Both the position numbers and the translations under genes were made by a program. A stretch of DNA of 25,955 nt from a virus (lineage: Duplodnaviria; Caudoviricetes), in IMG/VR virus record IMGVR_UViG_3300032024_000071, positions 1 to 25,955 of that record; one strand, given 5' to 3'. Shown piece after piece: positions 1,669-25,955 of this stretch. Position 1 is the stretch's first letter. The number at the start of each line of letters is the position of its first letter. The notes under the pieces are model-generated. The model did not search any database. It worked only from the letters and a program-made list of their open reading frames with translations, and was not told the origin of the DNA.

Positions 1669-2145
1669 ATGACCGAGACCGCCGAAAACACGACTAGAAA
1701 GCCTGTTACTCTGCCAGTAACCCCCTTCATTGACCTAACCGGCCTGCTGGATTTAGTTTCAGGTATTACGTTAATCTTGACCAAAACACCAGATACCTAT
1801 TGGAACGGAGGTGCTGTCTGGAATTTAGATCGAGGTGATGTCTGTATAAGTACTTAAGAAGAAGAAAACAATGTTCTGCATATTGGGGTAACCTTAAACC
1901 CTGATTTGGATATAAGTCTGACAGAGATCCAGCAGTGGGCTCTTGCTGGACTTGCAGCAACCCACAACATAGAAGTTGTTGAATATGTAGATAGAGGTGA
2001 AGAAGAACAATCTAAGGCCTTCAGTGAAGGCGCCGCTGCTTACGCGGACGACCTTCCGTTAGAGGCTAACCCTTATCCTGCCCTATCAGATGAACATGCT
2101 GATTGGTTCCTAGGCTGGAAGGAAGCTGACGAGGAAGACTTTTAG
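1669..2145 (+). pseudogene. Single ~158-codon gene split by one in-frame TAA (1855-1857); C-terminal Rmf/CrpP-like motif
   Basis: ORFs 1669-1857 and 1906-2145 share one frame with no other stop (DVCIST*EEENNVLHIGVTLNPDLDISL). There is an SD (AAGGA) only before 1669. C-terminus AFSEGAAAY...ANPYP......WFLGW. Confidence 0.65.
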
Positions 2146-2941: not shown

Positions 2942-2979
2942 AAAGGTCGGTCTCTAGACATAGGGATCGGCCTTTTCTT
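2942..2979 (+). terminator. Rho-independent terminator
   Basis: 15-bp stem AAAGGTCGGTCTCTA/TAGGGATCGGCCTTT (3 G-U pairs), GACA loop, ending TTTTCTT, just after a gene end. Confidence 0.8.
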
Positions 2980-2999
2980 ACCTAAGGTCAGACTAAGAA

Positions 3000-3007
3000 A
3001 CTGTAAA
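3000..3007 (+). promoter_or_regulatory. ACTGTAAA motif copy 3
   Basis: Lies just after the terminator, 44 nt before the ATG at 3044. Confidence 0.7.
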
Positions 3008-3043
3008 TGTTTAAATGTAACACCCACTAATCAGGAGAAATTA

Positions 3044-3715
3044 ATGAAGGTACTACCTTATTCAGAGTTTAGAGCTTCTATGAAGGCATCATTAGATGCT
3101 GTCTGTTCAGATCATGAACCAACCATTGTCACTCGTCCCGGAGAACCGGTTGTTATATTATCCCTAGAGGATTATAATATCAGAGTACAGGCGATACATG
3201 TCATCGATGAAACGACCTACCTTATGTCAGGAGAAAACGGAAAACGTCTACTTGAATCAATGTCTCAGTTAAAAGAGCTTGGGGTAGAGACACCCGATGT
3301 TATTGTAATAAACCCAGGCTTGCCTACAGAGGCAGAGTATGACCCAGATAAATTGGTATTTAAAACAACGTTCATAGGACAGGACAACGTTACAGATACA
3401 GGCATAGCGGCACTAGCCCAGGAAGTAGGTCATGCTATAGACGCGGTCTACACTAAGATCATTTGGTCTGTAGGTAATAATGATCGTACTGGAAGGTCTA
3501 TCTTGACCGACAGGCTGGTGACCTTCCTGAGAGAGCACTGTCGTCATGATCTTACCCGAACACCCTTGTTGGATGCATTTCAGGTAGTCTGCGATGAGTC
3601 TAATAATACCCCCAGTCTAATAGATTCCGGCGAGTCGCCTGCTGCTTGTGTCTACTTTGACATTAAAGGTAAACATTATAGGCATGAGGCCTCTGTAATA
3701 ACTTCAGGGGACTAA
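3044..3715 (+). CDS. Phd/YefM-family antitoxin domain fused to a tail-sheath C-terminal-like domain
   Basis: aa 1-78 have the YefM signature (YSEFRASMKASLDAVCSDHEPTIVTRPGEPVVILSLEDYN...ETTYLMSGENGKRLLESMSQL). The C-terminal ND...R..L......FL and FQVVCDESNNTPSLIDSG..VYFD match the sheath gene in this window. SD AGGAG. Confidence 0.8.
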   Translation: MKVLPYSEFRASMKASLDAVCSDHEPTIVTRPGEPVVILSLEDYNIRVQAIHVIDETTYLMSGENGKRLLESMSQLKELGVETPDVIVINPGLPTEAEYDPDKLVFKTTFIGQDNVTDTGIAALAQEVGHAIDAVYTKIIWSVGNNDRTGRSILTDRLVTFLREHCRHDLTRTPLLDAFQVVCDESNNTPSLIDSGESPAACVYFDIKGKHYRHEASVITSGD

Positions 3716-3716
3716 A

Positions 3717-4172
3717 ATGAACGATGCCTCTTATACACACGCCCATGTTATAAGCGATCTGGGTCTCTGCCTAACCGCCTTCCCTGGACGATACTCAGAA
3801 GGAATTATTGTTGCTCTGACGTCTCAACCTGAACACGCTGCTGTTCTTAATGATAACTTCACTGGTGGTAGCCTTGTCTGGGAAACAGTGTCTTCTTTAC
3901 TAGCTCAATTAGAGTGGTTCCCTATTATTTTTGTAGAAAATCATTCTTCTATTATTACCGCATTGGACCAAAAATTAGAAACTATCTCTGTTACCCAGCC
4001 ACTTGATCGTGACTGGAAACTAGGTATTGAGCTTATGTGCTCTATAATAGAACAAGATAGACATCATAATCTAGTTTCCAGTATGCCAAGAGAGTTTACA
4101 CAAAATCTTACAGCCGCCGCTATAGACTTTTTATTTACTGTTAGGGATGCAGATTCCGGAGTAAATAAATGA
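3717..4172 (+). CDS. Hypothetical protein (151 aa)
   Basis: Tightly packed ORF: 1 nt after the previous stop and overlapping the next gene. No recognised motif. Confidence 0.7.
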   Translation: MNDASYTHAHVISDLGLCLTAFPGRYSEGIIVALTSQPEHAAVLNDNFTGGSLVWETVSSLLAQLEWFPIIFVENHSSIITALDQKLETISVTQPLDRDWKLGIELMCSIIEQDRHHNLVSSMPREFTQNLTAAAIDFLFTVRDADSGVNK

Positions 4173-4384
4173 AATGTAGCGGTGTTGACAGAAGGAGCAT
4201 TGCAGAACGATCCGGGTCCGCCTACGCTAGGACCATAAGCCAGACCCTTAATGACAACCCATACCCAGAAGGCAGCAGAGAATCTGATGAGTGGATTAAG
4301 GGATTCACCTTAGAGAAGGAAGCACTGCGTCTATCTAATGACCTATGGAAAAGAGAACGCGAGCAAGTCCTTATTATACAGTAA
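4169..4384 (+). CDS. Small protein with Rmf/CrpP-like motif
   Basis: ATGA overlap with the upstream gene, SD GGAG. The motif NPYPEGSRESDEWIKGF resembles the (C/N)PY...W..G(W/F) core of Rmf/CrpP-fold proteins. Confidence 0.55.
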   Translation: MKCSGVDRRSIAERSGSAYARTISQTLNDNPYPEGSRESDEWIKGFTLEKEALRLSNDLWKREREQVLIIQ

Positions 4385-4413
4385 AATTTCCTACAGGACA
4401 AAGAGATAAGACT

Positions 4414-5115
4414 ATGATAACATTACAACAATCCCTTATAGAAAGATTAACGATCGAGGCCAACCGTGAAGGATTAGCTCGCAGGCTCTTAACAACTCAC
4501 GCAGTCCTTCTAGACCAAGCCTTACCTAAGGCAGCTAGTCTTAAAACTTCCACTGCTAGGTTCAACCCACTCGACCCTCAGGTAAGACCGGACTATCTTG
4601 AATACCTAACTAGGTACTATCAAGAGTCCATTGGGGAAATTCTAGGTAATGAAGACCGTGCCTGGTTACAATCTACTAACATGGTATGTTCCCAAATAGA
4701 GGGAAAATTGAGTAGTTCTATTATTGAGGAAGCTGTAGGTATGCTTATCAAGGTAGGATTTGACCGTGCCGCTATCTCTATAGTAATGGGTATCCATTCT
4801 TACTCTGCACTGGTTATTAGTACAGAACTGTTTGAGGACTTCACACCGCCATCCTACAAGACTGAGATAGCTTCGGGTAACCTAGGGACTTTATGTGAGC
4901 TACCGTTGTATAGCGATTCTTTCCGTCACCCACTGGCTAAGGCTTTATCTAATGAGATATTTGTAGTCGCTAAGGCAGCGGGTACCCTTTACCAAGATCC
5001 ACTAGAGCTACTTACTGCTGAGTCTGGGCAGGTCATTGGAATTAAAGATCAGGTATCTCATATTTTAGCCGGGGTATCTTCTGTGATTAAGATAGTTGAT
5101 AGGTATATCAAATGA
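4414..5115 (+). CDS. Truncated, divergent major-capsid-protein (HK97-fold) paralog
   Basis: Ordered motifs ANREGLARRLL, EDRAW, GKLS, GNLGTL, SDSFRHPLAKAL, EIFVV and SSVIK resemble, from memory, the MCP of RSL1/Lu11/Y3-like jumbo myoviruses (ANRxGFxRRLL, EDRLW, GxLG, SDAYRHPxHKVL, RSVAKG). Start at 4414 avoids the overlap (alternative 4345). Confidence 0.65.
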   Translation: MITLQQSLIERLTIEANREGLARRLLTTHAVLLDQALPKAASLKTSTARFNPLDPQVRPDYLEYLTRYYQESIGEILGNEDRAWLQSTNMVCSQIEGKLSSSIIEEAVGMLIKVGFDRAAISIVMGIHSYSALVISTELFEDFTPPSYKTEIASGNLGTLCELPLYSDSFRHPLAKALSNEIFVVAKAAGTLYQDPLELLTAESGQVIGIKDQVSHILAGVSSVIKIVDRYIK

Positions 5116-5127
5116 CAGAGAGGCTTT

Positions 5128-5361
5128 ATGATGGTAGAGAAATATAGAGTTGTCTTTGATCCAGAAGGCCTACCTGGGTCAGTATGTGAGGTGGTTAAGG
5201 CAAATATATCTGACGTATCTATTGAGACTAGGACCAGCAACAAGCACCTTCTGATAAAGCCTAGGATGCGACGGGTAGTAAGGAAACAAAAGGTCTCCCT
5301 AAACTTTGTCGAAGATACCTGTCTTCCAGTAAGTGACTATTTTAATCAGCGGCTCCGATAA
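5128..5361 (+). CDS. Hypothetical protein (77 aa)
   Basis: GAGG SD, fills the gap between genes on the coding strand. Confidence 0.6.
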   Translation: MMVEKYRVVFDPEGLPGSVCEVVKANISDVSIETRTSNKHLLIKPRMRRVVRKQKVSLNFVEDTCLPVSDYFNQRLR

Positions 5362-5395
5362 AGAACATGAAAATAAGCCTAACCAGGAGGACATT

Positions 5396-5761
5396 ATGGG
5401 AAAGATTATAGTAAACGGAGGCCAGCCTTTAGAGGGTTGTCCTGAAAGCCCAGGAGCTGCAGAACTTTGGGTCAACGAGGCCAATAAGACCAAATCAGCT
5501 AGGGAGCCTAGGTGGTCCTTTGATTGTGGATTCAAGCTAGATTTTGACGGTGCGCTGCTCCGTATCAGTAGCAGGTTTTACCCACCCAAAGAGTATTACG
5601 GGAAAACCTGGGATGGGGAGGTAACGATCTACCTCTCAGGAGAGGAGGTATCCGTTAAGAAGTTCGATGAGAGGACCTTAGAGGAATTGCGAGTAGCAGT
5701 AGAGACCTACCTAGAGGAGGTAACCTTTGTTATTCGGGACACGCTAAAAGAGCACCTTTAA
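5396..5761 (+). CDS. Hypothetical phage protein (121 aa)
   Basis: A strong SD (AGGAGG) before ATG 5396 supports this start over 5333. Confidence 0.75.
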   Translation: MGKIIVNGGQPLEGCPESPGAAELWVNEANKTKSAREPRWSFDCGFKLDFDGALLRISSRFYPPKEYYGKTWDGEVTIYLSGEEVSVKKFDERTLEELRVAVETYLEEVTFVIRDTLKEHL

Positions 5762-5768
5762 CTGTAAA
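5761..5768 (+). promoter_or_regulatory. ACTGTAAA motif copy 4
   Basis: Abuts the upstream stop codon, 49 nt before the ATG at 5810. Confidence 0.65.
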
Positions 5769-5809
5769 CCAACATAGTAACCAATATTAAAATCCAGGAG
5801 AAGAATGAG

Positions 5810-6510: not shown

Positions 6511-6984
6511 GTGGGCATATACACTAAATTTATCTTCGATGCGACGTTAAGAAAGGACATTCCTGCAGAGATAAGGGAGTACATTAGACATCGCCTTACC
6601 CGACCCGGTGAGGGCGCAGCCTCAACGGAAGCCGTTCCTTTTGATGCTCACCCATTCTTTGATACACCAAGCTGGTACCTCATACTTACGTGGCACAACG
6701 TTAACGGGAATGGGTTTAAGGCCCATTGCGAAGAGACAGATCTGGGTTTAAGAATCCACATCGACACTGAGTTTAAGAACTACGATAATGAAATACGTTG
6801 GTTCTTACTTTGGATAGCACCTATGGTAGATACAACCCAACCGTGTACTAAGTTTATTGAGGTTGAGGATAGCGATGCAGATGAAGAGGACTGTATTCCC
6901 CTGATCTTAAAAATACAAGAGAAGATTACCTTAAATTCAGGTAGGCTAAGCCTTACTGATCTCAACATTTTGGAAGGAGTATAA
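6511..6984 (+). CDS. Hypothetical phage protein (157 aa)
   Basis: SD GGAG with GTG start. The MGIYT...HPFF....W...FKNYDNEI..F..WI.P pattern is reminiscent of a recurrent uncharacterised phage family. Confidence 0.75.
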   Translation: MGIYTKFIFDATLRKDIPAEIREYIRHRLTRPGEGAASTEAVPFDAHPFFDTPSWYLILTWHNVNGNGFKAHCEETDLGLRIHIDTEFKNYDNEIRWFLLWIAPMVDTTQPCTKFIEVEDSDADEEDCIPLILKIQEKITLNSGRLSLTDLNILEGV

Positions 6985-7997: not shown

Positions 7998-8285
7998 GTG
8001 AGTAACACAAGTATCTTACCGTTAGATGAACTTATTAAAGAGAAAGAACGGTCTACACAGATCGCTAATTGGCCCAAACCTATCTGCCAACGTTGCAACA
8101 AGGAGATAGATAAAATGACCATAAAGTTTGAGGTCAACTCTCAGACGTATAAGGTGGAGGTCGAATGCCATTTGGGATATGAAATGTATATAGACTTGAT
8201 GCGGTATTTCTTAAGGGCGTTACTGTCATTGAGAGAGGCCAAGCCTTTAAGAGAAATTAAACTACCAGAAGTTGAGAACACCTAA
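7998..8285 (+). CDS. Hypothetical protein with Zn-ribbon-like motif
   Basis: SD AAGGA with GTG start; CQRC...VECH. Confidence 0.65.
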   Translation: MSNTSILPLDELIKEKERSTQIANWPKPICQRCNKEIDKMTIKFEVNSQTYKVEVECHLGYEMYIDLMRYFLRALLSLREAKPLREIKLPEVENT

Positions 8286-8726
8286 ATGAATCTTATTAAA
8301 CAGACTATACTACACGACCCAGAAAACGGTATACACGGAAACTGCTTATCAGCAGTGCTTTCTTCCCTACTCCATATACCTATCTGCGACATACCAGTAT
8401 TTAGCAACGACGATACCTGGGTCAAAGACCTAAATGCCTGGTTACGTCCTTTAAATCTGGCCTACTTATCTTTCGACGGAAGTTCTGATGAGTGGCTAAA
8501 GACCTTAGGTATTGAGGGACTTTATCACGAAATAGGAGGACCCTCTCCTAGGTACGAAGACACTCTACACGCCTGTGTAGGAAAAGATGGGGAACTACTA
8601 TTCGACCCGCACCCAGATAATACCCTGCTTAAAGAGGTAGAATCATTCGGAGTCTTAATAGCATTGAGACCTTGGGAAGTAGTCACGCCTTTAAGAACAA
8701 AACTATTAGGAGATACCCATGAGTAA
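8286..8726 (+). CDS. Putative papain-like (C39-like) Cys-His-Asp fold protein
   Basis: KQT...GNCLSAVLSSLL, HACVG and FDPHP in the order expected for Gln/Cys/His/Asp. Confidence 0.55.
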   Translation: MNLIKQTILHDPENGIHGNCLSAVLSSLLHIPICDIPVFSNDDTWVKDLNAWLRPLNLAYLSFDGSSDEWLKTLGIEGLYHEIGGPSPRYEDTLHACVGKDGELLFDPHPDNTLLKEVESFGVLIALRPWEVVTPLRTKLLGDTHE

Positions 8727-9549
8727 GAAAAGTAAGAAGGAAAAGAGAGTAACACAGGAACAGATTACAACAACCTATACAGAGAAGCCCTTATACAATA
8801 AGGCTCAGCTAAAGTTCTTAGGAGAATGTGCAACTAACCTACGGGGTGAAAAACCACCTATTAAGATCCTCACCTCGTACTACGATAACATCCAAAATAT
8901 CCCTAAGGAGTATATCTTAATTAGTGTTTCTGGGGGAATATCTAAGGCCATAGAAGAGTCAGTAGATCTCTGGGATAGGACACTTGCCCCTTCTCTTTCT
9001 ATTTATGACGAGTATTCCGCTTCTAGAGACCACGTTAGATATACTGAACGATTCACAGCTGAAAGGCTTACGAAAATAAACTGGGAAGATAAGATACGCA
9101 ACTGGGAAGCCTTATTTCCTAACCGAACACTGGTCTTACTTTGTTACGAAAAACCGGATGAGTTCTGCCACAGGCATCTACTAGCAGAAGCCATTTTTAG
9201 ATCGCTGGGTATCACGGTTGCGGAGTTTAGTAACGACTCTTATATAGATTCCGCCTACCTACAGAGGTTGGAAAATAAGGTTGCTCTCGAGTCTATGCAC
9301 GGCTCTGCTCTATGTACTGTGCAGCGTGAAGATCTTATTCAACTGATACAGAACTACAAGGCTCTGTGTCCTACCACACCACCTGTAATACCTGCTGAGG
9401 CACATTCTTTAGAAGTGTTTTCTCTCAATGCCTGTGAAACAAGCCCTTCAGGTAAAGAGGCATACATTGGATTTAAGCTGGAAAATGGTGACTTTCACTT
9501 TATTTCTGTACCCTATACAGGACCGGTAAAGGAACAGGCAGTGACCTAG
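8719..9549 (+). CDS. DUF488-family protein with N- and C-terminal extensions
   Basis: TSYY...ISVS...LAPS...Y.ERF..E.L...LVLLCYEKPDEFCHRHLLAE signature. SD AGGAG. Confidence 0.75.
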   Translation: MSKKSKKEKRVTQEQITTTYTEKPLYNKAQLKFLGECATNLRGEKPPIKILTSYYDNIQNIPKEYILISVSGGISKAIEESVDLWDRTLAPSLSIYDEYSASRDHVRYTERFTAERLTKINWEDKIRNWEALFPNRTLVLLCYEKPDEFCHRHLLAEAIFRSLGITVAEFSNDSYIDSAYLQRLENKVALESMHGSALCTVQREDLIQLIQNYKALCPTTPPVIPAEAHSLEVFSLNACETSPSGKEAYIGFKLENGDFHFISVPYTGPVKEQAVT

Positions 9550-10335: not shown

Positions 10336-11709
10336 ATGCCTCAAGACGTACAAACCCAACCTTTAGCTCTTCCTAAAGAGCATGTCGTAGATCACACAGT
10401 ACAGATCATGGATAAGATCCATGAAATAAGATCCATCTTAAACTCAATGGTCTTTGAAAGGCAAGAGGAGACTGACGGCATTCTCCTCAGTATTTTATCG
10501 GGCGCTAACACCCTATTCTTAGGTGAGCCTGGAACCGCAAAGACTTTCCACATTCAATTAGCCTCGACCTTGCTCGGTCTCTCTAACTTCGATATCTTGT
10601 TGAGTGAGACAGTTAAGCCTGACCAAATATTTGGGCCAACAGATATACCTGCCCTTGCCCAGGGTCGACAGCAGACCAAATATAAAGGCTATGCTCCGGA
10701 CTGTGAGATACTGTTCTTCGATGAAATATTCAAGGCCAACGCAACTGTCTTAAACCCGCTACTCTGGTTAATCAATGAACGCCTGTTCCGCGATGGGGAT
10801 AACGGCATAGTCAAATGTAAGGTAATGTCTACGTTTGCCGCGTCTAACGAGCTACCTACGGACCCTCTGCTGGCGGCACTATACGATAGATTCCTCTTGA
10901 GGTTTAATGTCTCATACCTCAAGAGTGAAGACAACACCAGAAAACTGATAGGTAAATTCCTCAGTAATCCTGATGAGTTCTCCCCCTTACTATCTAAAGA
11001 AGAAGTTATAGAGCTTCGCCGCCTTACCAAGGCTGTTGTACTTCCTGATGATATGAGAGATCTTGCTATGAAGATACGTCGTCAGGTAGAGCACTCTATG
11101 GGCTTTCGGATAAGTGATAGACGGTTTATTCAGACAATTCGTGTCATACAGGCCTCAGCGGTCTTGAATTGTAGGACTGAGGTACATGCTCAAGACATTG
11201 AGGTCATGGTGAACATCTTATGGAATGAGCCTCAGCAAATATCAAAGATACAGTCCCTTGTTTATGCCTCTACATCTGGTGACACGGTTGCTATCTCCAC
11301 ATACGTAGAGCAAGCAAACCTAATACGGGCTACCTTAGGTGAAGGTACAGGTCTTAGAGCAAAGCTGTCTAAATTGGTAAAGCTTCATCGCCTAACCAAG
11401 GCATTCAAGAGCCGGTACGCCGTTAAGGCTGCTGCTGAGATACGAGAGATAGGGAACGTGGTGCAACACCTTCTAAAAGAACGTGAGGTATTTACCGTTG
11501 TTAAGATAGACTCAGGTCCAACCTCGATCCTAAAATTGTCTCATACTACGGCCTCTGTCTGGGCAACCAAAGAGCTTAGATCATTTGGGTTTCGACATAA
11601 GCGTAAGGGCAACTACTGGTATTATTCGGGAAAGGTATCAACACTAAGGGCCACCTTTGCTAAGGCAGGTATTGAATTTAAGATTAGCTCTGTAGACTTA
11701 AAGGTATGA
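10336..11709 (+). CDS. MoxR-family AAA+ ATPase, RavA-like
   Basis: Walker A GEPGTAKT, Walker B ILFFDEIFKA, ASNELP, LAALYDRFLLR and ISDRR, all typical of RavA. SD AGGAG. Confidence 0.9.
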   Translation: MPQDVQTQPLALPKEHVVDHTVQIMDKIHEIRSILNSMVFERQEETDGILLSILSGANTLFLGEPGTAKTFHIQLASTLLGLSNFDILLSETVKPDQIFGPTDIPALAQGRQQTKYKGYAPDCEILFFDEIFKANATVLNPLLWLINERLFRDGDNGIVKCKVMSTFAASNELPTDPLLAALYDRFLLRFNVSYLKSEDNTRKLIGKFLSNPDEFSPLLSKEEVIELRRLTKAVVLPDDMRDLAMKIRRQVEHSMGFRISDRRFIQTIRVIQASAVLNCRTEVHAQDIEVMVNILWNEPQQISKIQSLVYASTSGDTVAISTYVEQANLIRATLGEGTGLRAKLSKLVKLHRLTKAFKSRYAVKAAAEIREIGNVVQHLLKEREVFTVVKIDSGPTSILKLSHTTASVWATKELRSFGFRHKRKGNYWYYSGKVSTLRATFAKAGIEFKISSVDLKV

Positions 11710-13808
11710 CAACTAAGCACGAAAGGTATGAGCAGACTATTAGGTCTGCTCTGTTACGGCTGTCTAAAAAGATTGGTCCTGAGGTACTTGACATACCTGT
11801 TACCGTTGTGTCTTACAAGGAGACAGGTATAGAGGTTGCTGCTACGGATGCCTCATCGATAATGGTTTCGTCTAAGCTGCTTAAACGTGACCCTCTTAAT
11901 CTAGAGGTATACCTAGCCCATGAGATATTTCACGACGTTATCCACGACGATCAGCTTGTACATGAATTTGACTCTTCGGTCTTAAATGAGGCCGAAGACT
12001 ACCTAATCAACTCTTACCTACTAGAGCTCTATGGGTATGATGTTCTAAACGTAGTCTTCCCTGGACTCTACGCTAAGAAGTATACGGGATGGCCTCTTCT
12101 TAAGATAGCTAAGGCTATACAGAAGACAGGTGTTATCAACGATCACTATTTCTCAAATTCGCATAAACATCCTACGATCTTAAAGGTGGCGAATATACTT
12201 AGGAAACAACTAGGTCTAGACACAGTTAAGAGCATTCTTGAGACAGAACTAGATGATACGTTCTCTAAAGAGCTTAAAAAGGCTTATGACACCTTTAATT
12301 TCAGCAACCTTCCTAACGTTAATCCAGAGGTTGCCATTAGCTCTATCTGGACACTGTTCCATTCTCAGAACATTAAATGGAAACCTGAAAACCTAGGTAA
12401 GTATCTGACTCAGACAGAAGCCATACTACTAGGCCCTGCTATAGACAATGAAGAAACTCTAGACGACCCTGAGTTTGCTCTATTCTGTACCAGGCACCTA
12501 TTAGCTACGTTCAATGATTCCGAGTCATTGGTTAAGAAAAAAATATGGGCCGCCCAATGTAAACTAAATAGAGTCGTAACTAGAATCTACTGCCTTGATG
12601 AAGACTTACAATCAATACGTTCTAGAAAAGAGAGAGACGTAGTTAAGGCTAAATTAGGTAAGCTTGCGGCTAGAATGCCGGCCCTTAAGGCTAAATTAGC
12701 CTACCTTAGCTCTCTACCTTCCCTGAAGACGCTGTTACTTCAACCTACAGGAATTCCTGTTAGGGTTTCCAAAAGGTCTATAAGCCTTCGGTCTACATTA
12801 TCTTCAGCCAGGTTGACCTCTGAATATCCAAAGTTTAGCAGGCGGGCCCCCTTGATCGTACTTCTAAGGGCCCTGCAAAAACTAGCAGGTAGCCCTAAAG
12901 CGATAAAGGAGCTCTACGAACAATTTGCAGGTTTTGCTAAAGACTTTGCTGATGAAGAGGAAGAAGAGAACACTGAAGAACATGGTGAAGATGCAGAAGA
13001 CTCTAATGTTACAGGCAAGCAGGCTGGCCCTAATGGAGATAAATCTTCACCTAGGCTACAGGCCTTAGAAACATTGGCCGCAAACCCTAAGGTGTTCAAA
13101 TCAATTCTTAGAAATGCCTTAGAGTTTGGAGAAAAGCTGATCTCTAAATCTACTTCATCTGTATCTGAATCAGGTTTAATAGACAGGACACTTTCCTTTG
13201 GAAACGACCTATCTCGTACGCCTGCGTCTGAACTAGGTCGATTAGGAAACATGTATACCCAATTGTCGTTTCTTGTTGATCTAGCAAATAGCAATCTCCT
13301 TCAGTATGCGGATACAGATCCTAGAAGGTCACCTTTGATACTAGAATTGGACTGCTCTGGGTCCATGACAGGGAAGAGGTATGAACTGGCTGCGGGTTTT
13401 TGTTTCAGTTTGATCCGTAAAATGCAGACTTCTAACAGAGGCTGCGCGTTAATAAAATTTACAGATGAGGTAGATGAGGTGTTTGTTTGGGATGGAAACA
13501 AGGTATCCCTAGCAACGCTCTTAAAAGCTCTGTCCACACCCTCACTCCAAGGTACAGACTTTGATACAGCACTGACCGAGGCATTCTCAGTCCACAGGAG
13601 ACAAGGTTGGGTAAGGTCTCAGGTACTTCTAATCACTGATGGGTATGGCTCGATTTCACCATCTGTACAGGCCCTAAAACCTTCAGGGTGTAAGGTAACG
13701 GCGATCCTAGTCAATAACAGATATTTGGCAGGTGTCGATGAGTGCATCAATGTAGCCCGCAACAACCTAACGATCGAGCTTGTTCGGGTAGGTAACAGGT
13801 TCCTGTAA
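11706..13808 (+). CDS. VWA-domain partner protein (ViaA/CoxE-like C-terminus) with N-terminal HEXXH metallopeptidase-like domain
   Basis: ATGA overlap with the ATPase. VAATD...LAHEIFH..NEAEDYLIN (DUF2201-N-like), an acidic linker, GNDLSR..ASEL, MIDAS DCSGSM, GTDF and LITDG. Confidence 0.85.
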   Translation: MTTKHERYEQTIRSALLRLSKKIGPEVLDIPVTVVSYKETGIEVAATDASSIMVSSKLLKRDPLNLEVYLAHEIFHDVIHDDQLVHEFDSSVLNEAEDYLINSYLLELYGYDVLNVVFPGLYAKKYTGWPLLKIAKAIQKTGVINDHYFSNSHKHPTILKVANILRKQLGLDTVKSILETELDDTFSKELKKAYDTFNFSNLPNVNPEVAISSIWTLFHSQNIKWKPENLGKYLTQTEAILLGPAIDNEETLDDPEFALFCTRHLLATFNDSESLVKKKIWAAQCKLNRVVTRIYCLDEDLQSIRSRKERDVVKAKLGKLAARMPALKAKLAYLSSLPSLKTLLLQPTGIPVRVSKRSISLRSTLSSARLTSEYPKFSRRAPLIVLLRALQKLAGSPKAIKELYEQFAGFAKDFADEEEEENTEEHGEDAEDSNVTGKQAGPNGDKSSPRLQALETLAANPKVFKSILRNALEFGEKLISKSTSSVSESGLIDRTLSFGNDLSRTPASELGRLGNMYTQLSFLVDLANSNLLQYADTDPRRSPLILELDCSGSMTGKRYELAAGFCFSLIRKMQTSNRGCALIKFTDEVDEVFVWDGNKVSLATLLKALSTPSLQGTDFDTALTEAFSVHRRQGWVRSQVLLITDGYGSISPSVQALKPSGCKVTAILVNNRYLAGVDECINVARNNLTIELVRVGNRFL

Positions 13809-14517: not shown

Positions 14518-15510
14518 ATGAAAATAATTAACCGTAAGGACTTCTTAGCCTTACCTGCAAACACCCTGTTTGCTAAATATGCAAACTGTAACTTTGAAGA
14601 CATTCAGATAAAGGGAGATACCCTAGGTAATGATTTTCAGTCACAAAGCCTTATAACAGTAGAGTCAACAGGCAGTCTACTGAAAAGTGAGGAAACAGGA
14701 GAGTCTTTCTCACTTGACCTTGAGGGTATGGGAAGGGACAGAGAGTTTGAGGATACTCAACTGTTTGCAGTATATGAAGAGCTAGACCTACAGGGTCTAG
14801 CACTGAAACTTTTAAGCCTCAGTCCAAACCTTGTATTAAACCTTATTGTACGCAACCTCCATAAACCTGAGGTAGCTATAGAGGTAAACGTTTTAAATCA
14901 AAAGACAGAGCATTGGGTCACATTAGGCTATGAGCCTGATTTACCTCCAGGGGTCCTTGATACCTGGATCTTACAAGGGCGAGAAGATACCGTTAAGCGG
15001 CGAGGATATACACCGTACATATACCATGTAGATGAGTACCCATTCCTACCTCAGGTAGCTTCTCAGTCTGCAACAGAGGGTATACAGGAAACACCTAATT
15101 ATTTATCCGTAATAGCAGATATCTCCATTGTCTTAAATTCGGTACCTGTTAGGTATGAAGACCAAGTTGCGGTCTGGACAGGTATACCTGTAGTAGAATA
15201 CAATATCAAGACAAATAGCCTATACCTAGGATCTGCAGCCAATCATCCTAAGATTGACCTATTTACTGTCCTGGCAGGTAGGTACGGCATAGCTCTATTG
15301 GATACCGACTGGAAGACTGAATATTCCAGAGAGTTTGGACGGGTATATGGGTACCAGGCATTAGTAAAGGAAATATTTGTAGGTACTACCTCAACAGGTA
15401 CATATCGGATTAGGAAAGAAGGCTTTCCTAATACATTTGATGACGAGTACTCTAGGGAGAACATAGAGTCAATGACCCAAATACTACGTACAAGCTCTTC
15501 AAAAGAGTAG
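14518..15510 (+). CDS. Hypothetical protein (330 aa), probably multi-domain
   Basis: SD GAGGA, long ORF, no catalytic motif recognised. Confidence 0.75.
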   Translation: MKIINRKDFLALPANTLFAKYANCNFEDIQIKGDTLGNDFQSQSLITVESTGSLLKSEETGESFSLDLEGMGRDREFEDTQLFAVYEELDLQGLALKLLSLSPNLVLNLIVRNLHKPEVAIEVNVLNQKTEHWVTLGYEPDLPPGVLDTWILQGREDTVKRRGYTPYIYHVDEYPFLPQVASQSATEGIQETPNYLSVIADISIVLNSVPVRYEDQVAVWTGIPVVEYNIKTNSLYLGSAANHPKIDLFTVLAGRYGIALLDTDWKTEYSREFGRVYGYQALVKEIFVGTTSTGTYRIRKEGFPNTFDDEYSRENIESMTQILRTSSSKE

Positions 15511-15559
15511 ACCAAAATAGGTCACTAAACTAATAACAATAATCGAATAAGGACTACCA

Positions 15560-16471
15560 GTGACAAACGTAGCAGATATAAAAGAAAGTGAAGCGTATTT
15601 ATTTCTCAAGGGATTAAAGAACGCAGGTGTTACCTATACAGAGCTCTACGATAACTGTGAAGGTTATGCAGAACGTTCGGATCTTTCAAGGGATTTAAAC
15701 CGATTAATTCAGTCTAAATTGGTACAGAAGAGAGGGACGCTGTACTGGGATAATGCTCAGGCACCTACAGAGGCCTACTGTCCTGAAGAGGATGCCTCAG
15801 TAGCTACCGCAAAGAAGAAGGTTAATTCCTCTGTACCTGCCCCTGACTACTATGAAGAGGGAGGTTATGTGAAGACGTTAAAAGTTGCTCTAGATACCTA
15901 TAGTGCTGCTAAGGCCCTACCTTGTGAGGAACCAGAACCTGATACGTCTAGAGACACCTCTCTTATAGATACTTCCTTAGAAGGCAAAAAGGTTAAGGAG
16001 CCTCTGAGGGGAAACCTACAGAGATCTAAGAACCATGTTAAGGTAGCCCTACTGTTTTACTATCATAAGGATGAGAAGTTTACCTTTTCGGAGATTACCG
16101 CCCTTACAGGGGTAAAGGATGGAACACTCTATCCAATGATAAAACGTCTACTTGCCCAAGAATACATATATAAGACTGCTGAGAATACGTTTCACTGGAC
16201 ATCGAGATACACATACCCTTTCTCTTCAGTTAAGCCTGAAGATAGTTCGTGGGCTACGTTGACAATAATACCTGTAGATGATACAGCTACAAAGGCCCAG
16301 CAGCAGCAGCTAATAGCGTCCGAAAAACCCCAAGAGGAAAAGGTACCTGAGGTACTAGGAATACCTACTGAAGACTTAACCTTAGCAGGTATAGATTCAG
16401 TCATTGCCCGATATGAAATGGAGATGGCATCTCTTAAAACCCTAAGACAATCCTATGTAGACCGTAGTTAG
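15560..16471 (+). CDS. Tandem winged-helix DNA-binding protein
   Basis: SD AAGGA with GTG start. wHTH1 GVTYTELYD...SDLSRDLNRLIQSKLVQKRG. wHTH2 FTFSEITALTGVKDGTLYPMIKRLLAQEYIYK (PadR/MarR-like GTLYP). C-terminal coiled coil. Confidence 0.65.
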   Translation: MTNVADIKESEAYLFLKGLKNAGVTYTELYDNCEGYAERSDLSRDLNRLIQSKLVQKRGTLYWDNAQAPTEAYCPEEDASVATAKKKVNSSVPAPDYYEEGGYVKTLKVALDTYSAAKALPCEEPEPDTSRDTSLIDTSLEGKKVKEPLRGNLQRSKNHVKVALLFYYHKDEKFTFSEITALTGVKDGTLYPMIKRLLAQEYIYKTAENTFHWTSRYTYPFSSVKPEDSSWATLTIIPVDDTATKAQQQQLIASEKPQEEKVPEVLGIPTEDLTLAGIDSVIARYEMEMASLKTLRQSYVDRS

Positions 16472-18177: not shown

Positions 18178-19737
18178 ATGTCAAATAGTCACTCTAGTGC
18201 CGGCGTCTACACGGCCGAAAAAGATCAATCTCAACGTGCTGCTAATGCCCCGACCTCGATCGGGGCTATTGTAGGCGAGTCGAATAAGGGGCCAGTAGGT
18301 ATACCTACCCTTATTACAGACACTACTAAATTTACAGACCGTTTTGGGTTTCCTGATGCGAGCTTGTCGTTCTTACATCATTCATCCTTAGCGTTCTTAT
18401 CTGAGTCCTCTAGACTGTACGTGACCCGGGTATCTCCCGGATCAACGTTTGGGGGATGCACAGTTAGTTTGTCTAACAACCTAAACTCCTCTGAGTCTTG
18501 GAATGTTGGACTAGAAGATCCTTCGATCTATGACTTTGCTCCTGATGACCTGTTCATCATTACAGGTATAGACCAAGGCGACTGGACCGATTCTATTAGG
18601 GTAGTCATTTACCCTAATACTCAGGCTAGTGACGGTACGTTCTTCGTTGAAGTCTATCTAGTTAATGTAGGTCGTCCTGTAGAAAGGCATCTAGTCCACT
18701 TGGATTTAGTTAGGGACGGATATGGCGTACAGCTAAATATAGCAGAGTACATCAATAAACGATCTACCTATATAAATGTTGTGCAGAACAATCTTAATGC
18801 AGCATTTGTCTCAACACCTAAAAGACAGCTTATCAACAGTCTTAACTCTGTTGCGATCCACGGTGGGTCGAATGGGGTAGCAGCTACTCCTGGAGATATT
18901 ATCAGAGCTTGGGAGCTGCATCAAGATCCAGAACAGTTAGATGTAAATATCCTGATCAACGGTGGATATACTCATGTTGCTGTCCAGGCAGCTATGACCC
19001 AGTTAGCCGAAGACCGTATGGACTGTATTGCAATTTTAGATACTCCTGCAACAGAGCAGAGTCTAGCTAACGCGATCTCCTATAGACGGAACGACCTTCA
19101 GGTAGATAGCTCGTATGCTGCCTTATACAGTCCAGACTATTTGGTCTTAGACAAGTATAGCGATCGTCGCCTGTACGTACCACCTTCTGGATTTATAGCA
19201 GCAGCGTATGCTCGTACCGACAGAGAGTTTGATACATGGTTTGCTCCTGCCGGTACAAATCGGGGTAAACTGGACGTTTTGGGCGTTCGTTACGACTACA
19301 ACCAAGGTGACAGAGATGCTCTGGTAGACAATCAGGTAAATCCAACCAGGGTAATTCCTGGGGTAGGCATTAAGATCTGGGGGGCAGATACTATGCAAAC
19401 TCAGGCGTCTGCACTATCGAATGTCTCAGTCCGTCGATTGATGCTTTTCTTGGAGAAGTCTTTATCGATTGCAGCTCTTTACTCAGTCTTTGATCCTAAC
19501 GATACCATCTTACGCGCATCTCTTGTAGAGATTTGTGACCGGTTCTTAAAACCTATCAAGGCAGCTCGTGGGCTTTATGGGTTTAACGTAGTCTGCGATG
19601 ATACAAACAATGGGCCAGAGACAATCGCCAGTGGAGATTTGATCTTAGACGTGTATGTAGATCCAGTCTTACCGGCTAAGAGAGTCCTATTGACAGCTAT
19701 CGTAAACAAGACAGGCGCGACCTTCAGCACAGGCTAA
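18178..19737 (+). CDS. Tail sheath protein (T4 gp18-like)
   Basis: SAGVYTAEKD, GPVGIP, LYVTRV, DCIAILD, YAALYSP, VPPSG, WFAPAG..RG, VNP, IWG..T, NVSVRRL, FDPND and VVCDDTNN. Confidence 0.95.
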   Translation: MSNSHSSAGVYTAEKDQSQRAANAPTSIGAIVGESNKGPVGIPTLITDTTKFTDRFGFPDASLSFLHHSSLAFLSESSRLYVTRVSPGSTFGGCTVSLSNNLNSSESWNVGLEDPSIYDFAPDDLFIITGIDQGDWTDSIRVVIYPNTQASDGTFFVEVYLVNVGRPVERHLVHLDLVRDGYGVQLNIAEYINKRSTYINVVQNNLNAAFVSTPKRQLINSLNSVAIHGGSNGVAATPGDIIRAWELHQDPEQLDVNILINGGYTHVAVQAAMTQLAEDRMDCIAILDTPATEQSLANAISYRRNDLQVDSSYAALYSPDYLVLDKYSDRRLYVPPSGFIAAAYARTDREFDTWFAPAGTNRGKLDVLGVRYDYNQGDRDALVDNQVNPTRVIPGVGIKIWGADTMQTQASALSNVSVRRLMLFLEKSLSIAALYSVFDPNDTILRASLVEICDRFLKPIKAARGLYGFNVVCDDTNNGPETIASGDLILDVYVDPVLPAKRVLLTAIVNKTGATFSTG

Positions 19738-21702: not shown

Positions 21703-22497
21703 ATGCAGGCAAATGAAAAACAAATGGCAGATATTCTGTCAGATCCAGACTGGTTAGACATAGGCAACTTGCCGTCCAACTTTTACCCTTACGATTTTAA
21801 GATACTGTACATAAAACCTTTTACGGCAAAGCATTTACGTCTTTTGTCTAAAACGGTGGTCACTAAGGATATTAGTTATCAAAAGCGGGCAGTAGATTTG
21901 GTTATCTCACAGGACGTAAATAAGATCTCTATAGGTGATTACTACTACCTTCTAGAGTGGTTAAAGGTTCATAGCTCTCCAAAGACCCCCCTAACCGTTG
22001 AGTGGCATTGCCAAGAGCAGCGCCTAAAACATAAGGATACAGGAGAGTATATCCTAAATGATCCTAAGAGTCTAGAGATCGCCCGTGCAACTGTAGACCC
22101 TGCGGACTACATCCTTGAACCGTGTGGGTGCCATTGTACCGAGTCCTTGCACATGGCAGATCTGGAAATTATCCAACTACCTGAAGAAGATTGGGCAGGT
22201 CTTCCAGAAGGATTTGACTTTCCAAGGGTAAACATACTAGCAGACCAGCAGGCAGCTCTGCTAGACTCAGAGTTAAACATGATTGTAGGTGCAGCCTCTT
22301 GGGTTGCAGGTAACTCATTTGCAGAAAAGGTTAAAACCTTAGAAGATAGCCTTACCTTGGATATGTTCTACACTGCCCAGGCACTGAACGATACTATTAA
22401 TCATGGTATATCTCGGACAGCGGTACTTCATTGTAGGGAATGCCGAGCTGAGCATACGACTAAGCTTGCTATTGATACAGCATCTTTTTTCCGATAG
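21703..22497 (+). CDS. Tail/baseplate-hub assembly chaperone (T4 gp26-like)
   Basis: LPSNFYPY...YIKPFT, GDYYYLLEWLK, Cys pairs including CRECRAEH, and a terminal FF; directly before the tape measure. Confidence 0.7.
   Translation: MQANEKQMADILSDPDWLDIGNLPSNFYPYDFKILYIKPFTAKHLRLLSKTVVTKDISYQKRAVDLVISQDVNKISIGDYYYLLEWLKVHSSPKTPLTVEWHCQEQRLKHKDTGEYILNDPKSLEIARATVDPADYILEPCGCHCTESLHMADLEIIQLPEEDWAGLPEGFDFPRVNILADQQAALLDSELNMIVGAASWVAGNSFAEKVKTLEDSLTLDMFYTAQALNDTINHGISRTAVLHCRECRAEHTTKLAIDTASFFR
22485..22491 (+). other. Putative -1 programmed ribosomal frameshift heptamer T TTT TTC
   Basis: In-phase X XXY YYZ heptamer one codon before the chaperone stop; the -1 frame is open for 56 further codons. 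Confidence 0.7.
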
Positions 22498-25552: not shown

Positions 25553-25955
25553 ATGTCCAACACAATTTCGCCTAATTCCCCTATTTTCTACGTATATGCC
25601 TTAATGGATGGACGTAAGCCAGGACCCTATTACTACGGTAACTGGAAATTTGATTACGAACCTTTTATATAGGTAAAGGTAAGAATACTAGGTGGAAGAC
25701 GCACTTTATAGAGTCAAAACAGCGTACCTTAGAGAAGTGCGTAAACCAACACAAGACCCGGAAAATGAGACAGATTCAAAAGCAGGGGTACGAGGTTCCT
25801 GTACGTATAGTAAGATACAAATTAGTAGAGCAGGCGGCCTTCGATCTTGAAATAAAGCTGATTGGTAAGATCGGAAGAGCTGATCTTAAGTTAGGGCCAC
25901 TCACCAATAAGACAGTAGGTGGTGACGGTATGGTAGGTCAGGTAGTTTCTAAGAA
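25553..25955 (+). pseudogene. GIY-YIG (LEM-3-like) homing endonuclease, frameshifted at 25663-25666; 3'-partial
   Basis: MSNTISPNSPIFYVYALMDGRKPG...EPF stops at TAG 25670-25672. The -1 frame continues YIGKGKNTRWKTH...AFDLEIKLIGKIGRADLKLGPLTNKTVGGDG to the window end. Confidence 0.8.

Follow-up and report, generated by a model that had tools for sequence, protein, structure and literature searches.

The region between positions 3000 and 5761 of the viral record IMGVR_UViG_3300032024_000071 raises the question why a giant phage should maintain, in one compact unit outside its tail module, a gene that joins an antitoxin to the end of a tail sheath protein and a second gene that resembles a shortened and strongly diverged major capsid protein. 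We analyzed this IMG/VR record over its full length of 25,955 bp (hereafter the window). CheckV estimates its completeness at about 9%, and the window is therefore a fragment of a giant-phage genome. A contractile-tail module fills its right half, where the sheath gene is accompanied by two tube genes and by genes for baseplate-like proteins and a hub/lysin. Among named phages the 258-kb Pseudomonas phage PaBG comes nearest; its sheath is 43% identical, and the kinship is a distant one: 8 of the 34 open reading frames (ORFs) of the window match the PaBG genome (tblastn, E 0.01). An earlier note on this DNA, made from the letters alone, had placed six closely packed genes between a terminator with a motif copy and the next copy of the same motif. 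Both the boundaries and the close packing hold; six plus-strand ORFs fill positions 3044-5761 with intergenic gaps of -4 to 34 nt. The unit lies among other motif-led non-structural genes. The features referred to below are the following.

2942..2979, plus strand: terminator-like hairpin, stem of 15 bp, with TTTTCTT after it (-26.7 kcal/mol, z -3.9)
2999..3007, plus strand: copy of the promoter-like motif AACTGTAAA, 45 nt upstream of the start of gene 1
3044..3715, plus strand: gene 1, 223 amino acids (aa); residues 1-86 YefM/Phd-type antitoxin, about 87-119 linker, about 120-223 resembling the C-terminus of a sheath protein
3717..4172, plus strand: gene 2, 151 aa, no family; starts one base past the stop of gene 1
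4169..4384, plus strand: gene 3, 71 aa, with a patch NPYP..W..GF like that of the RMF/CrpP-family ORF at 1906-2145
4414..5115, plus strand: gene 4, 233 aa (frame open from 4345, 256 aa); compact, diverged homolog of an HK97-fold major capsid protein
5128..5361, plus strand: gene 5, 77 aa, no family
5396..5761, plus strand: gene 6, 121 aa, no family (alternative GTG start at 5333)
5760..5768, plus strand: next copy of AACTGTAAA, overlapping the stop of gene 6 and 50 nt upstream of the next gene start (5810)
18178..19737, plus strand: tail sheath gene (phrog_23, E 9.8e-93)

The N-terminal part of gene 1 is readily assigned. Residues 1-49 match the Pfam model PhdYeFM_antitox (PF02604) with an E-value of 7e-13 and 48.6 bits, the gathering cut-off being 29.8, and the alignment with E. 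coli YefM (2a6q, E 2.4e-8) covers residues 1-79, including a part beyond the dimerization core. The NCBIfam equivalog model for YefM, NF008499, scores 42.4 bits (E 5.8e-11) and stays under its cut-off of 121; gene 1 is therefore a member of the Phd/YefM family and not an ortholog of YefM. Among phage genes the top match, at 48% identity and E 2e-12, comes from a Pseudomonas phage and is annotated as YefM. We also looked for a neighboring toxin gene such as YoeB or Doc, and found no toxin family in gene 2 or in the other scanned ORFs of the window.

The C-terminal part of gene 1 is related to tail sheath proteins by several comparisons. Over residues 466-487 of the sheath encoded in the window, gene 1 is identical at 12 of 22 positions (pairwise E 8e-5), and none of 2000 shuffles reached the score of this local alignment. 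Two sheath PHROGs match gene 1 at E 0.003-0.012, a local hmmsearch with a sheath profile finds it at E 1.7e-5, and hhalign against an alignment of seven sheath sequences gives a probability of 93% and an E-value of 3e-7 over 50 columns (sheath residues 439-488). When gene 1 was searched by tblastn at E-values up to 1, 24 of the 27 phage records found lay under sheath genes, one was unannotated and two were antitoxin-like; taken individually the E-values of the sheath records are weak (0.02-0.8). A multiple alignment with sheath proteins is colinear from about residue 120 of gene 1 to its end, with residues 144-198 (to 223) being the counterpart of sheath residues 439-488 (probably to about 515). 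Only the last 100 or so of the 519 sheath residues are retained, and about 55-100 C-terminal residues can be aligned. Gene 1 carries the conserved C-terminal segment of the sheath and lacks the full architecture of a sheath protein (N-terminal arm, outer and inner domains, about 500 residues).

The two modules are truly joined in one gene. In run X3, a metagenome from a study other than that of the probable source runs X1/X2, an independent contig covers positions 3103-3542 and bridges both modules; the fusion is therefore not an assembly artefact. The antitoxin-sheath fusion which had been proposed for this gene is thus borne out from both ends. The homology to the window's own sheath concerns only the C-terminal end of that protein, fused to an antitoxin and a linker.

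For gene 4 a tblastn search of 50,697 phage records returned 11 records, all of them under major capsid genes, the best being PaBG (E 9e-5, 26% identity over 183 residues). A pairwise BLASTP with the PaBG capsid protein again gave 26% identity, with an E-value of 3e-11. Profile methods agree with this assignment: hhalign of gene 4 against 30 family members yields a probability of 95% and an E-value of 2.1e-8 over 180 columns, and a local hmmsearch with the capsid profile an E-value of 3.9e-9. Single database models respond more weakly; the NCBIfam HK97 capsid model NF042927 touches residues 23-54 of the 256-aa form (E 9e-5, under its cut-off) and the PHROG model alone (phrog_2522) reaches only E 0.074. 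Judged by these alignments gene 4 is homologous to the HK97-type major capsid protein of PaBG.

Capsid proteins of the PaBG type are very uniform, the best 120 of 287 matches being 56-100% identical to the PaBG protein; at 26% identity gene 4 stands apart from them as an outlier. It spans major capsid protein (MCP) positions 97-368, i.e., nearly the whole mature protein with internal deletions. This range contains 71 columns which are invariant in the family; gene 4 keeps 26 of them, has substituted 35 and is gapped at 10 (from R134 to E169, Q183, G345 and W346). The motifs EDRxW, GxLGTL and DxFRxP are retained. Nothing in gene 4 matches MCP residues 1-96, and the propeptide is missing. According to an extract of PMC7412058 the PaBG capsid protein sheds about 20% of its mass on maturation. 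In addition the family profile aligns to the solved 280-residue capsid protein 6wkk from profile position 78 onward. From the absence of residues 1-96, the mass loss in PaBG and the alignment to 6wkk, gene 4 looks like the mature form of a capsid protein minus one internal stretch. From the usual order of the elements of the HK97 fold we infer that the removed stretch would be the E-loop. A shell protein of this fold would need both the propeptide and the E-loop region.

The capsid-like gene had been described before as a fragmentary paralog. The homology is well supported by the pairwise and the profile comparisons; the protein is not a fragment, as almost the entire mature form is covered. 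No other capsid homolog is present among the ORFs of the window, and since the window covers about 9% of the genome and contains no capsid gene, gene 4 cannot be called a paralog of the phage's own capsid protein outright. The true capsid gene must lie within the missing 91% of the genome, and gene 4 is likely to be a paralog of the protein it encodes. We also considered whether gene 4 could itself be the capsid gene of the phage, whole or as one part of a split gene; this was rejected given the 26% identity, the loss of most invariant residues and the lack of further pieces in the window.

The place which the capsid gene occupies in PaBG, upstream of the homolog of PaBG_78 and of the sheath, is taken in the window by two unrelated ORFs at 14518-16471. 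One of them encodes 330 aa and the other 303 aa with weak winged-helix matches. The synteny at the head-tail junction is broken relative to PaBG. Neither 14518-15510 nor 15560-16471 shows similarity, and both were rejected as candidates for the capsid gene.

What could be the role of two such proteins? Our preferred reading, which we hold tentatively and would rate below an even chance, is that genes 1 and 4 of this unit of a PaBG-like giant myovirus encode non-assembling, soluble proteins which act off the virion as binding proteins in host takeover or counter-defense. The YefM module would neutralize a host toxin of the YoeB type set free during infection. The modules derived from the sheath end and from the capsid protein would bind the usual partners of sheath and capsid subunits, and among these we would prefer host proteins which recognize them. 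Transcription of the unit would depend on the promoter-like motif of the AACTGTAAA type which it has in common with seven other non-tail units. An off-virion role of gene 4 is suggested by the loss of the propeptide, of the E-loop region and of most family-invariant residues, and an off-virion role of gene 1 by the retention of nothing but the last 100 or so of 519 sheath residues. The hint at counter-defense comes from the YefM-like module, which looks complete and is accompanied by no toxin family in the window, and from the precedent of phage-borne orphan YefM genes, which passages of PMC9964418 propose to be anti-toxin-antitoxin devices.

Known phage antitoxins resemble gene 1 in part. The YefM protein ORF54 of cyanophage S-CREM1 is an orphan phage antitoxin gene (PMC9964418, in extract), and orphan antitoxin-like enzymes directed against DarTG1 are reported in a portion of PMC11825919. 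Gene 1 shares with these an antitoxin-family gene in a phage without its toxin, whose use against the toxin-antitoxin defense of the host has been proposed or shown according to the same extracts. Unlike the orphan antitoxins described there, gene 1 has an extra C-terminal part of about 137 residues which ends in the sheath-derived module.

That a giant phage keeps a short and diverged virion-protein copy is not without precedent in print, at least in the excerpted text of PMC5694885. There, gp117 of phage SPN3US and its phiKZ-like counterparts are described as a "cryptic", truncated and diverged paralog of the prohead protease. The likeness, as far as the excerpt goes, is that a giant phage keeps a shortened and diverged copy of a virion-morphogenesis protein which is detectable by profiles only and whose function is not known. 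It differs in that the parent of gp117 is a protease and the family extends over several phages, whereas here the parents are capsid and sheath proteins and one of the copies is fused to an antitoxin.

A second case might be present in PaBG itself. When the sheath profile was run over all ORFs of PaBG, it found, besides the two known sheath genes, the following ORF.

L010 41632-42306: PaBG_00291, a 224-aa orphan with the sheath motif FDVICDERNNTEASIA at residues 159-190

The assignment is supported by hmmsearch (E 5e-5), by hhalign (probability 90%, E 1.8e-6) and by phrog_23 (E 0.039). PaBG_00291 is like gene 1 in its length class, in the motif F-x-V-[VI]-C-D-E-x-N-N-T, in the relative position of this motif and in its location in a block of small hypothetical genes. 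It is unlike gene 1 in having no antitoxin domain and, outside the motif, no similarity to gene 1. No relatives of PaBG_00291 were found. A further ORF, PaBG_00050 (L006 27524-27985), matches the sheath profile more weakly at E 0.007. Together with PaBG_00291 the unit suggests that large phages recurrently carry shortened copies of virion proteins among their accessory genes.

The earlier note had gone one step further and suggested that the cell is pre-loaded with mimics of virion proteins. Many bacterial defense systems are triggered by capsid, portal, terminase or tail proteins. In its specific form, namely that non-assembling mini-copies of capsid and sheath occupy beforehand the host sensors which fire on these virion proteins, and that this is a general trigger-mimic strategy of which PaBG_00291 would be another case, we consider the idea unlikely. 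Consistent with the idea are the functional look of the genes, the loss of propeptide and E-loop region in the capsid copy, the position of the unit outside the tail module and the antitoxin partner domain, a kind of protein that phages are known to employ against host defenses. In the literature searched we found neither a description of a phage response by means of harmless virion look-alikes nor a capsid copy without propeptide and E-loop region among non-structural genes. The unit offers two small test objects, namely the YefM module joined to a sheath end and the capsid protein that has lost propeptide and E-loop region. Whether such shortened copies serve as decoys, in assembly control or in phage-phage interference, they would represent a gene class without known function.

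Several observations weigh against our preferred reading of genes 1 and 4 as off-virion binding proteins. The AlphaFold2 models of both proteins are of low confidence: for gene 4, with 30 capsid proteins as alignment, the predicted local distance difference test (pLDDT) is 45.1 and the predicted template modeling score (pTM) 0.30, and for gene 1, with six C-terminal sheath segments as alignment, the values are 44.4 and 0.37. No argument from fold, surface or interface can therefore be made. AACTGTAAA precedes not only this unit; it also precedes the MoxR gene of a MoxR-vWA pair, and because this pair is a proposed assembly chaperone an early timing of the motif is unproven. For the C-terminal part of gene 1 the ratio omega against the X3 variant is 0.47 and not significantly below 1 (Nei-Gojobori, p 0.12). 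Searches for relatives were largely empty. In the viral contigs gene 1 has only one match of 13 residues (L002, E 1e-3) and gene 4 none. Word-based searches of 5.8 billion proteins (near-length for gene 1) returned only the respective protein itself; the architecture of gene 1 was not met elsewhere among near-length proteins, other lengths not having been searched. No RNA run is among the public runs listed as holding the stretch, PADLOC on the unit reports no defense or anti-defense family, with two rows at chance level (E 0.024-0.035), and the literature searched contains no host sensor of the tail sheath.

The sheath query finds six loci in the IMG/VR viral contigs, each at most 38% identical, and a blastn of positions 3000-5800 against the phage records gives zero matches. 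The neighboring gene at 6511-6984 likewise has no match in the viral contigs. Conservation across phages cannot be used as evidence, and for synteny the relatives lie too far off. Gene 4 also finds nothing in the ESM Atlas, and the single locus from the metagenome scan with gene 4 (L018) was rejected as a chance match, as it lies antisense to a topoisomerase gene of a bacterium.

A possible but more doubtful explanation is that the two proteins modulate assembly or act as poison subunits. Gene 1 would dock on the sheath by strand-exchange contacts and gene 4 would enter capsomers via its central domain; own subunits would thereby be held until baseplates or proheads are ready, or the assembly of a co-infecting related phage would be spoiled. 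It agrees with this explanation that the retained segment of gene 1 is precisely the conserved C-terminal end of the sheath and that gene 4 has kept the three capsid motifs. The sheath-like part of gene 1 is 31% identical to the sheath of an unrelated IMG/VR phage (L015) and only 22% to that of the window, which would fit a device aimed at a competitor. The gene 1 model points in the same direction. Its best-modeled stretch, residues 145-220 (pLDDT 50-63), consists of two helices followed by three strands, and the top Foldseek row in the PDB is gp25 of phage T4, the initiator of sheath polymerization (5iw9, E 7.9e-3, probability 0.99). Further rows are T4 gp25 once more (5iv5_BD), with a root mean square deviation of 3.2 over 79 columns, the baseplate chain 6gj1_D of a type VI secretion system (T6SS; probability 0.95), the phage sheath 9f4a_SA (0.92) and, listed with a gp25-like protein, IraD (6od1_B, probability 0.89). 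The low-confidence model of gene 4 has encapsulins and capsids of the HK97 fold as its top rows, none of them better than E 0.17.

These rows carry limited weight for the assembly explanation. Neither model has a row that reaches E 0.001, confidence in the gene 1 model is low and an alignment made of sheath fragments biases it toward that fold; as both alignments included the parent families, the Foldseek rows are not independent of the sequence evidence. Moreover, the N-terminal antitoxin half of gene 1 has no evident role in assembly, and the capsid gene and a likely second sheath gene of the phage are outside the window.

T4 gp25, the T6SS protein TssE and IraD (5iw9, 6gj1_D, 6od1_B) are small and have a fold like the inner end of the sheath, and they are the best rows for the low-confidence model of gene 1. 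In contrast to gp25, the sequence kin of gene 1 is the sheath, the gene is placed outside the baseplate genes and the Foldseek rows are at E 0.008 or worse. E. coli IraD would be an example of such a fold serving regulatory protein binding away from a tail. For gene 4 the closest analogy is the vertex protein gp24 of phage T4, a paralog of the capsid protein with HK97 fold which is a full-length component of the shell and is encoded in the head module. Gene 4 is likewise a second HK97-fold capsid copy; unlike gp24 it has neither propeptide nor E-loop region, and its neighbors are non-structural genes.

The promoter-like motif leads to a different explanation for gene 1. The exact copies of AACTGTAAA in the window are these.

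1620, 2181, 2999, 5760, 10292 and 13807, all plus strand: exact copies of AACTGTAAA

Six copies compare with 0.39 expected, and none of 100 shuffles reaches six. If two copies with one mismatch are included, eight gene starts (1669, about 2226, 3044, 5810, 6511, 9994, 10336 and 13849) have the motif 30-50 nt ahead of them. No copy immediately precedes any gene from 14518 onward; one-mismatch copies occur there inside the genes 14518-15510, 15560-16471 and 21703-22497, and one lies beyond the last gene at 25640. A scan of the window for generic sigma-70 promoters gave no enrichment (12 sites, 18.7 expected). AACTGTAAA probably serves as a promoter or operator specific to the phage; the copy at 2181 belongs to the palindrome ACTGTAAACGTACAGT.

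Gene 1 could be a transcription factor whose Phd/YefM module would bind DNA, possibly the TGTA-containing AACTGTAAA, with the sheath-like module sensing free sheath; gene timing would then be coupled to tail assembly, and gene 4 and the others would be unrelated accessory genes. We regard this as improbable. In its favor are the over-representation of the motif and its position before eight starts, and the scanned ORFs of the window hold no partner toxin family. A few transcription factors of jumbo phages do use Phd DNA-binding domains (224 phages, PMC7824862, in the portion of the survey consulted). On the other side, gene 1 aligns to YefM past the DNA-binding core and looks like a complete antitoxin. 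The connection between the motif and YefM operators goes back to a TGTACA core of the latter, with just four letters shared.

We give still less credit to the explanation that gene 2 encodes a new toxin and forms with gene 1 a toxin-antitoxin pair carried by the phage, serving phage-phage exclusion or control of the host. The antitoxin gene comes first and the two genes are one base apart, and gene 2 belongs to no family, as is often the case with new toxins. Adjacency by itself is weak evidence, though, and gene 2 has no signal of a toxin family; its ESM Atlas model (pLDDT 0.37) has generic helical-repeat-like look-alikes only.

Are the genes of the unit functional at all? With the codon table of the phage all six frames score 0.10-0.24 bits per codon, compared with 0.11-0.33 for twelve reference genes, and the other two frames are negative. 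The probability of a random open frame of 233 codons is about 8e-7. Shine-Dalgarno-like sequences are read upstream of five of the six starts, and before the start of gene 4 at 4414 there is a weaker purine-rich stretch. The X3 variant of gene 1 has 22 substitutions in 19 codons (7 synonymous, 12 not) and an in-frame deletion of 3 nt, that of gene 6 has 12 substitutions with 11 changed codons (6 synonymous, 5 not), and in neither variant is there a stop or a frameshift. For gene 6 omega is 0.24 (p 0.023, Nei-Gojobori, 65 codons), which is weak evidence for purifying selection. Within gene 1 the changes are distributed unevenly: the YefM module has none in 66 covered codons and the rest of the gene all 22 (Fisher p 1e-4), a pattern that points to a mosaic history or to very different constraint. 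All these X3 counts are small and come from single contigs of low depth. Overall the genes of the unit look functional rather than decayed.

That genes 1 and 4 are inert remnants of old duplications or of recombination between structural genes and accessory DNA, as the lack of a usable relative for either, the extreme divergence from the parent families, the omega value of the C-terminal part of gene 1 and the homing-endonuclease-like genes nearby might suggest, is the least probable of the explanations considered, given the long open frames despite 26% identity to the parent family, the phage-like codon usage in the correct frame only, the in-frame indel of the X3 variant, the ribosome-binding sequences (weaker for gene 4) and the preserved family motifs.

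The short gene 3, which had been taken for an Rmf-like peptide, weakly resembles an RMF-family ORF of the window.

1906..2145, plus strand: RMF/CrpP-family ORF, 79 aa (Pfam RMF E 6.4e-7, 29.8 bits, cut-off 27.9)

Twelve of 33 residues are identical between the two (pairwise E 4e-5; E 0.003-0.004 when all ORFs are compared against each other). Gene 3 has no row with any Pfam or NCBIfam model, PF04957 and NF041886 included, and no match in the phage records, and the RMF family models themselves do not recognize it. The ORF at 1906-2145 matches the NCBIfam models Rmf_CrpP_fam (E 2.2e-5) and Rmf_like_phage (E 0.0044), both under their cut-offs; it is a phage-borne RMF-like protein, an upstream relative of gene 3 in a motif-led unit of its own.

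Genes 2, 5 and 6 had been thought to be possible further mimics, a suggestion for which we found no support because they match nothing that was searched. They have no match in Pfam, PHROGs, PADLOC or NCBIfam, and nothing beyond chance among the ORFs of the window, of the loci and of PaBG; the only row in the phage records is a chance one for gene 6 (E 0.5), and genes 2 and 6 have no significant match to PDB sequences. As candidates for virion mimics these three genes were dropped, as their similarity never exceeded chance.

Upstream of the unit, the hairpin at 2942-2979, whose stability was equaled by none of 200 shuffles, closes a lipoprotein-like gene at 2226-2924. The N-terminus of its product resembles a signal peptide with a terminal cysteine (...VIMGCSS), and the long remainder is of low complexity and rich in Q, P and A. 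X3 contigs diverge or stop around positions 2424-2943, and the gene therefore looks hypervariable between strains. Farther upstream, at 150-1631, a 493-aa protein matches PHROGs annotated as HNH endonuclease or homing endonuclease (E 2.7e-86), and this protein could be a source of mosaicism in the region.

The window gave no match in an Rfam scan. Downstream of the unit, a 276-aa protein at 8719-9549 contains a DUF488-N3a domain (E 2.4e-12). The MoxR-type AAA+ ATPase (Pfam bpMoxR, E 2e-41) and the 700-aa vWA protein following it occupy 10336-13808; the N-terminus of the latter matches an HNH-endonuclease PHROG. The MoxR-vWA pair occurs, according to an extract of a jumbo-phage survey (PMC7824862), in a group which includes PaBG and is proposed there to be a chaperone system of virion assembly. 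Finally, an X3 contig joins position 8259 to 8731 via 13 other letters, and the relative in X3 is therefore without the gene at 8286-8726. This gene is a homolog of PaBG_00227, which adjoins the prohead protease of PaBG.

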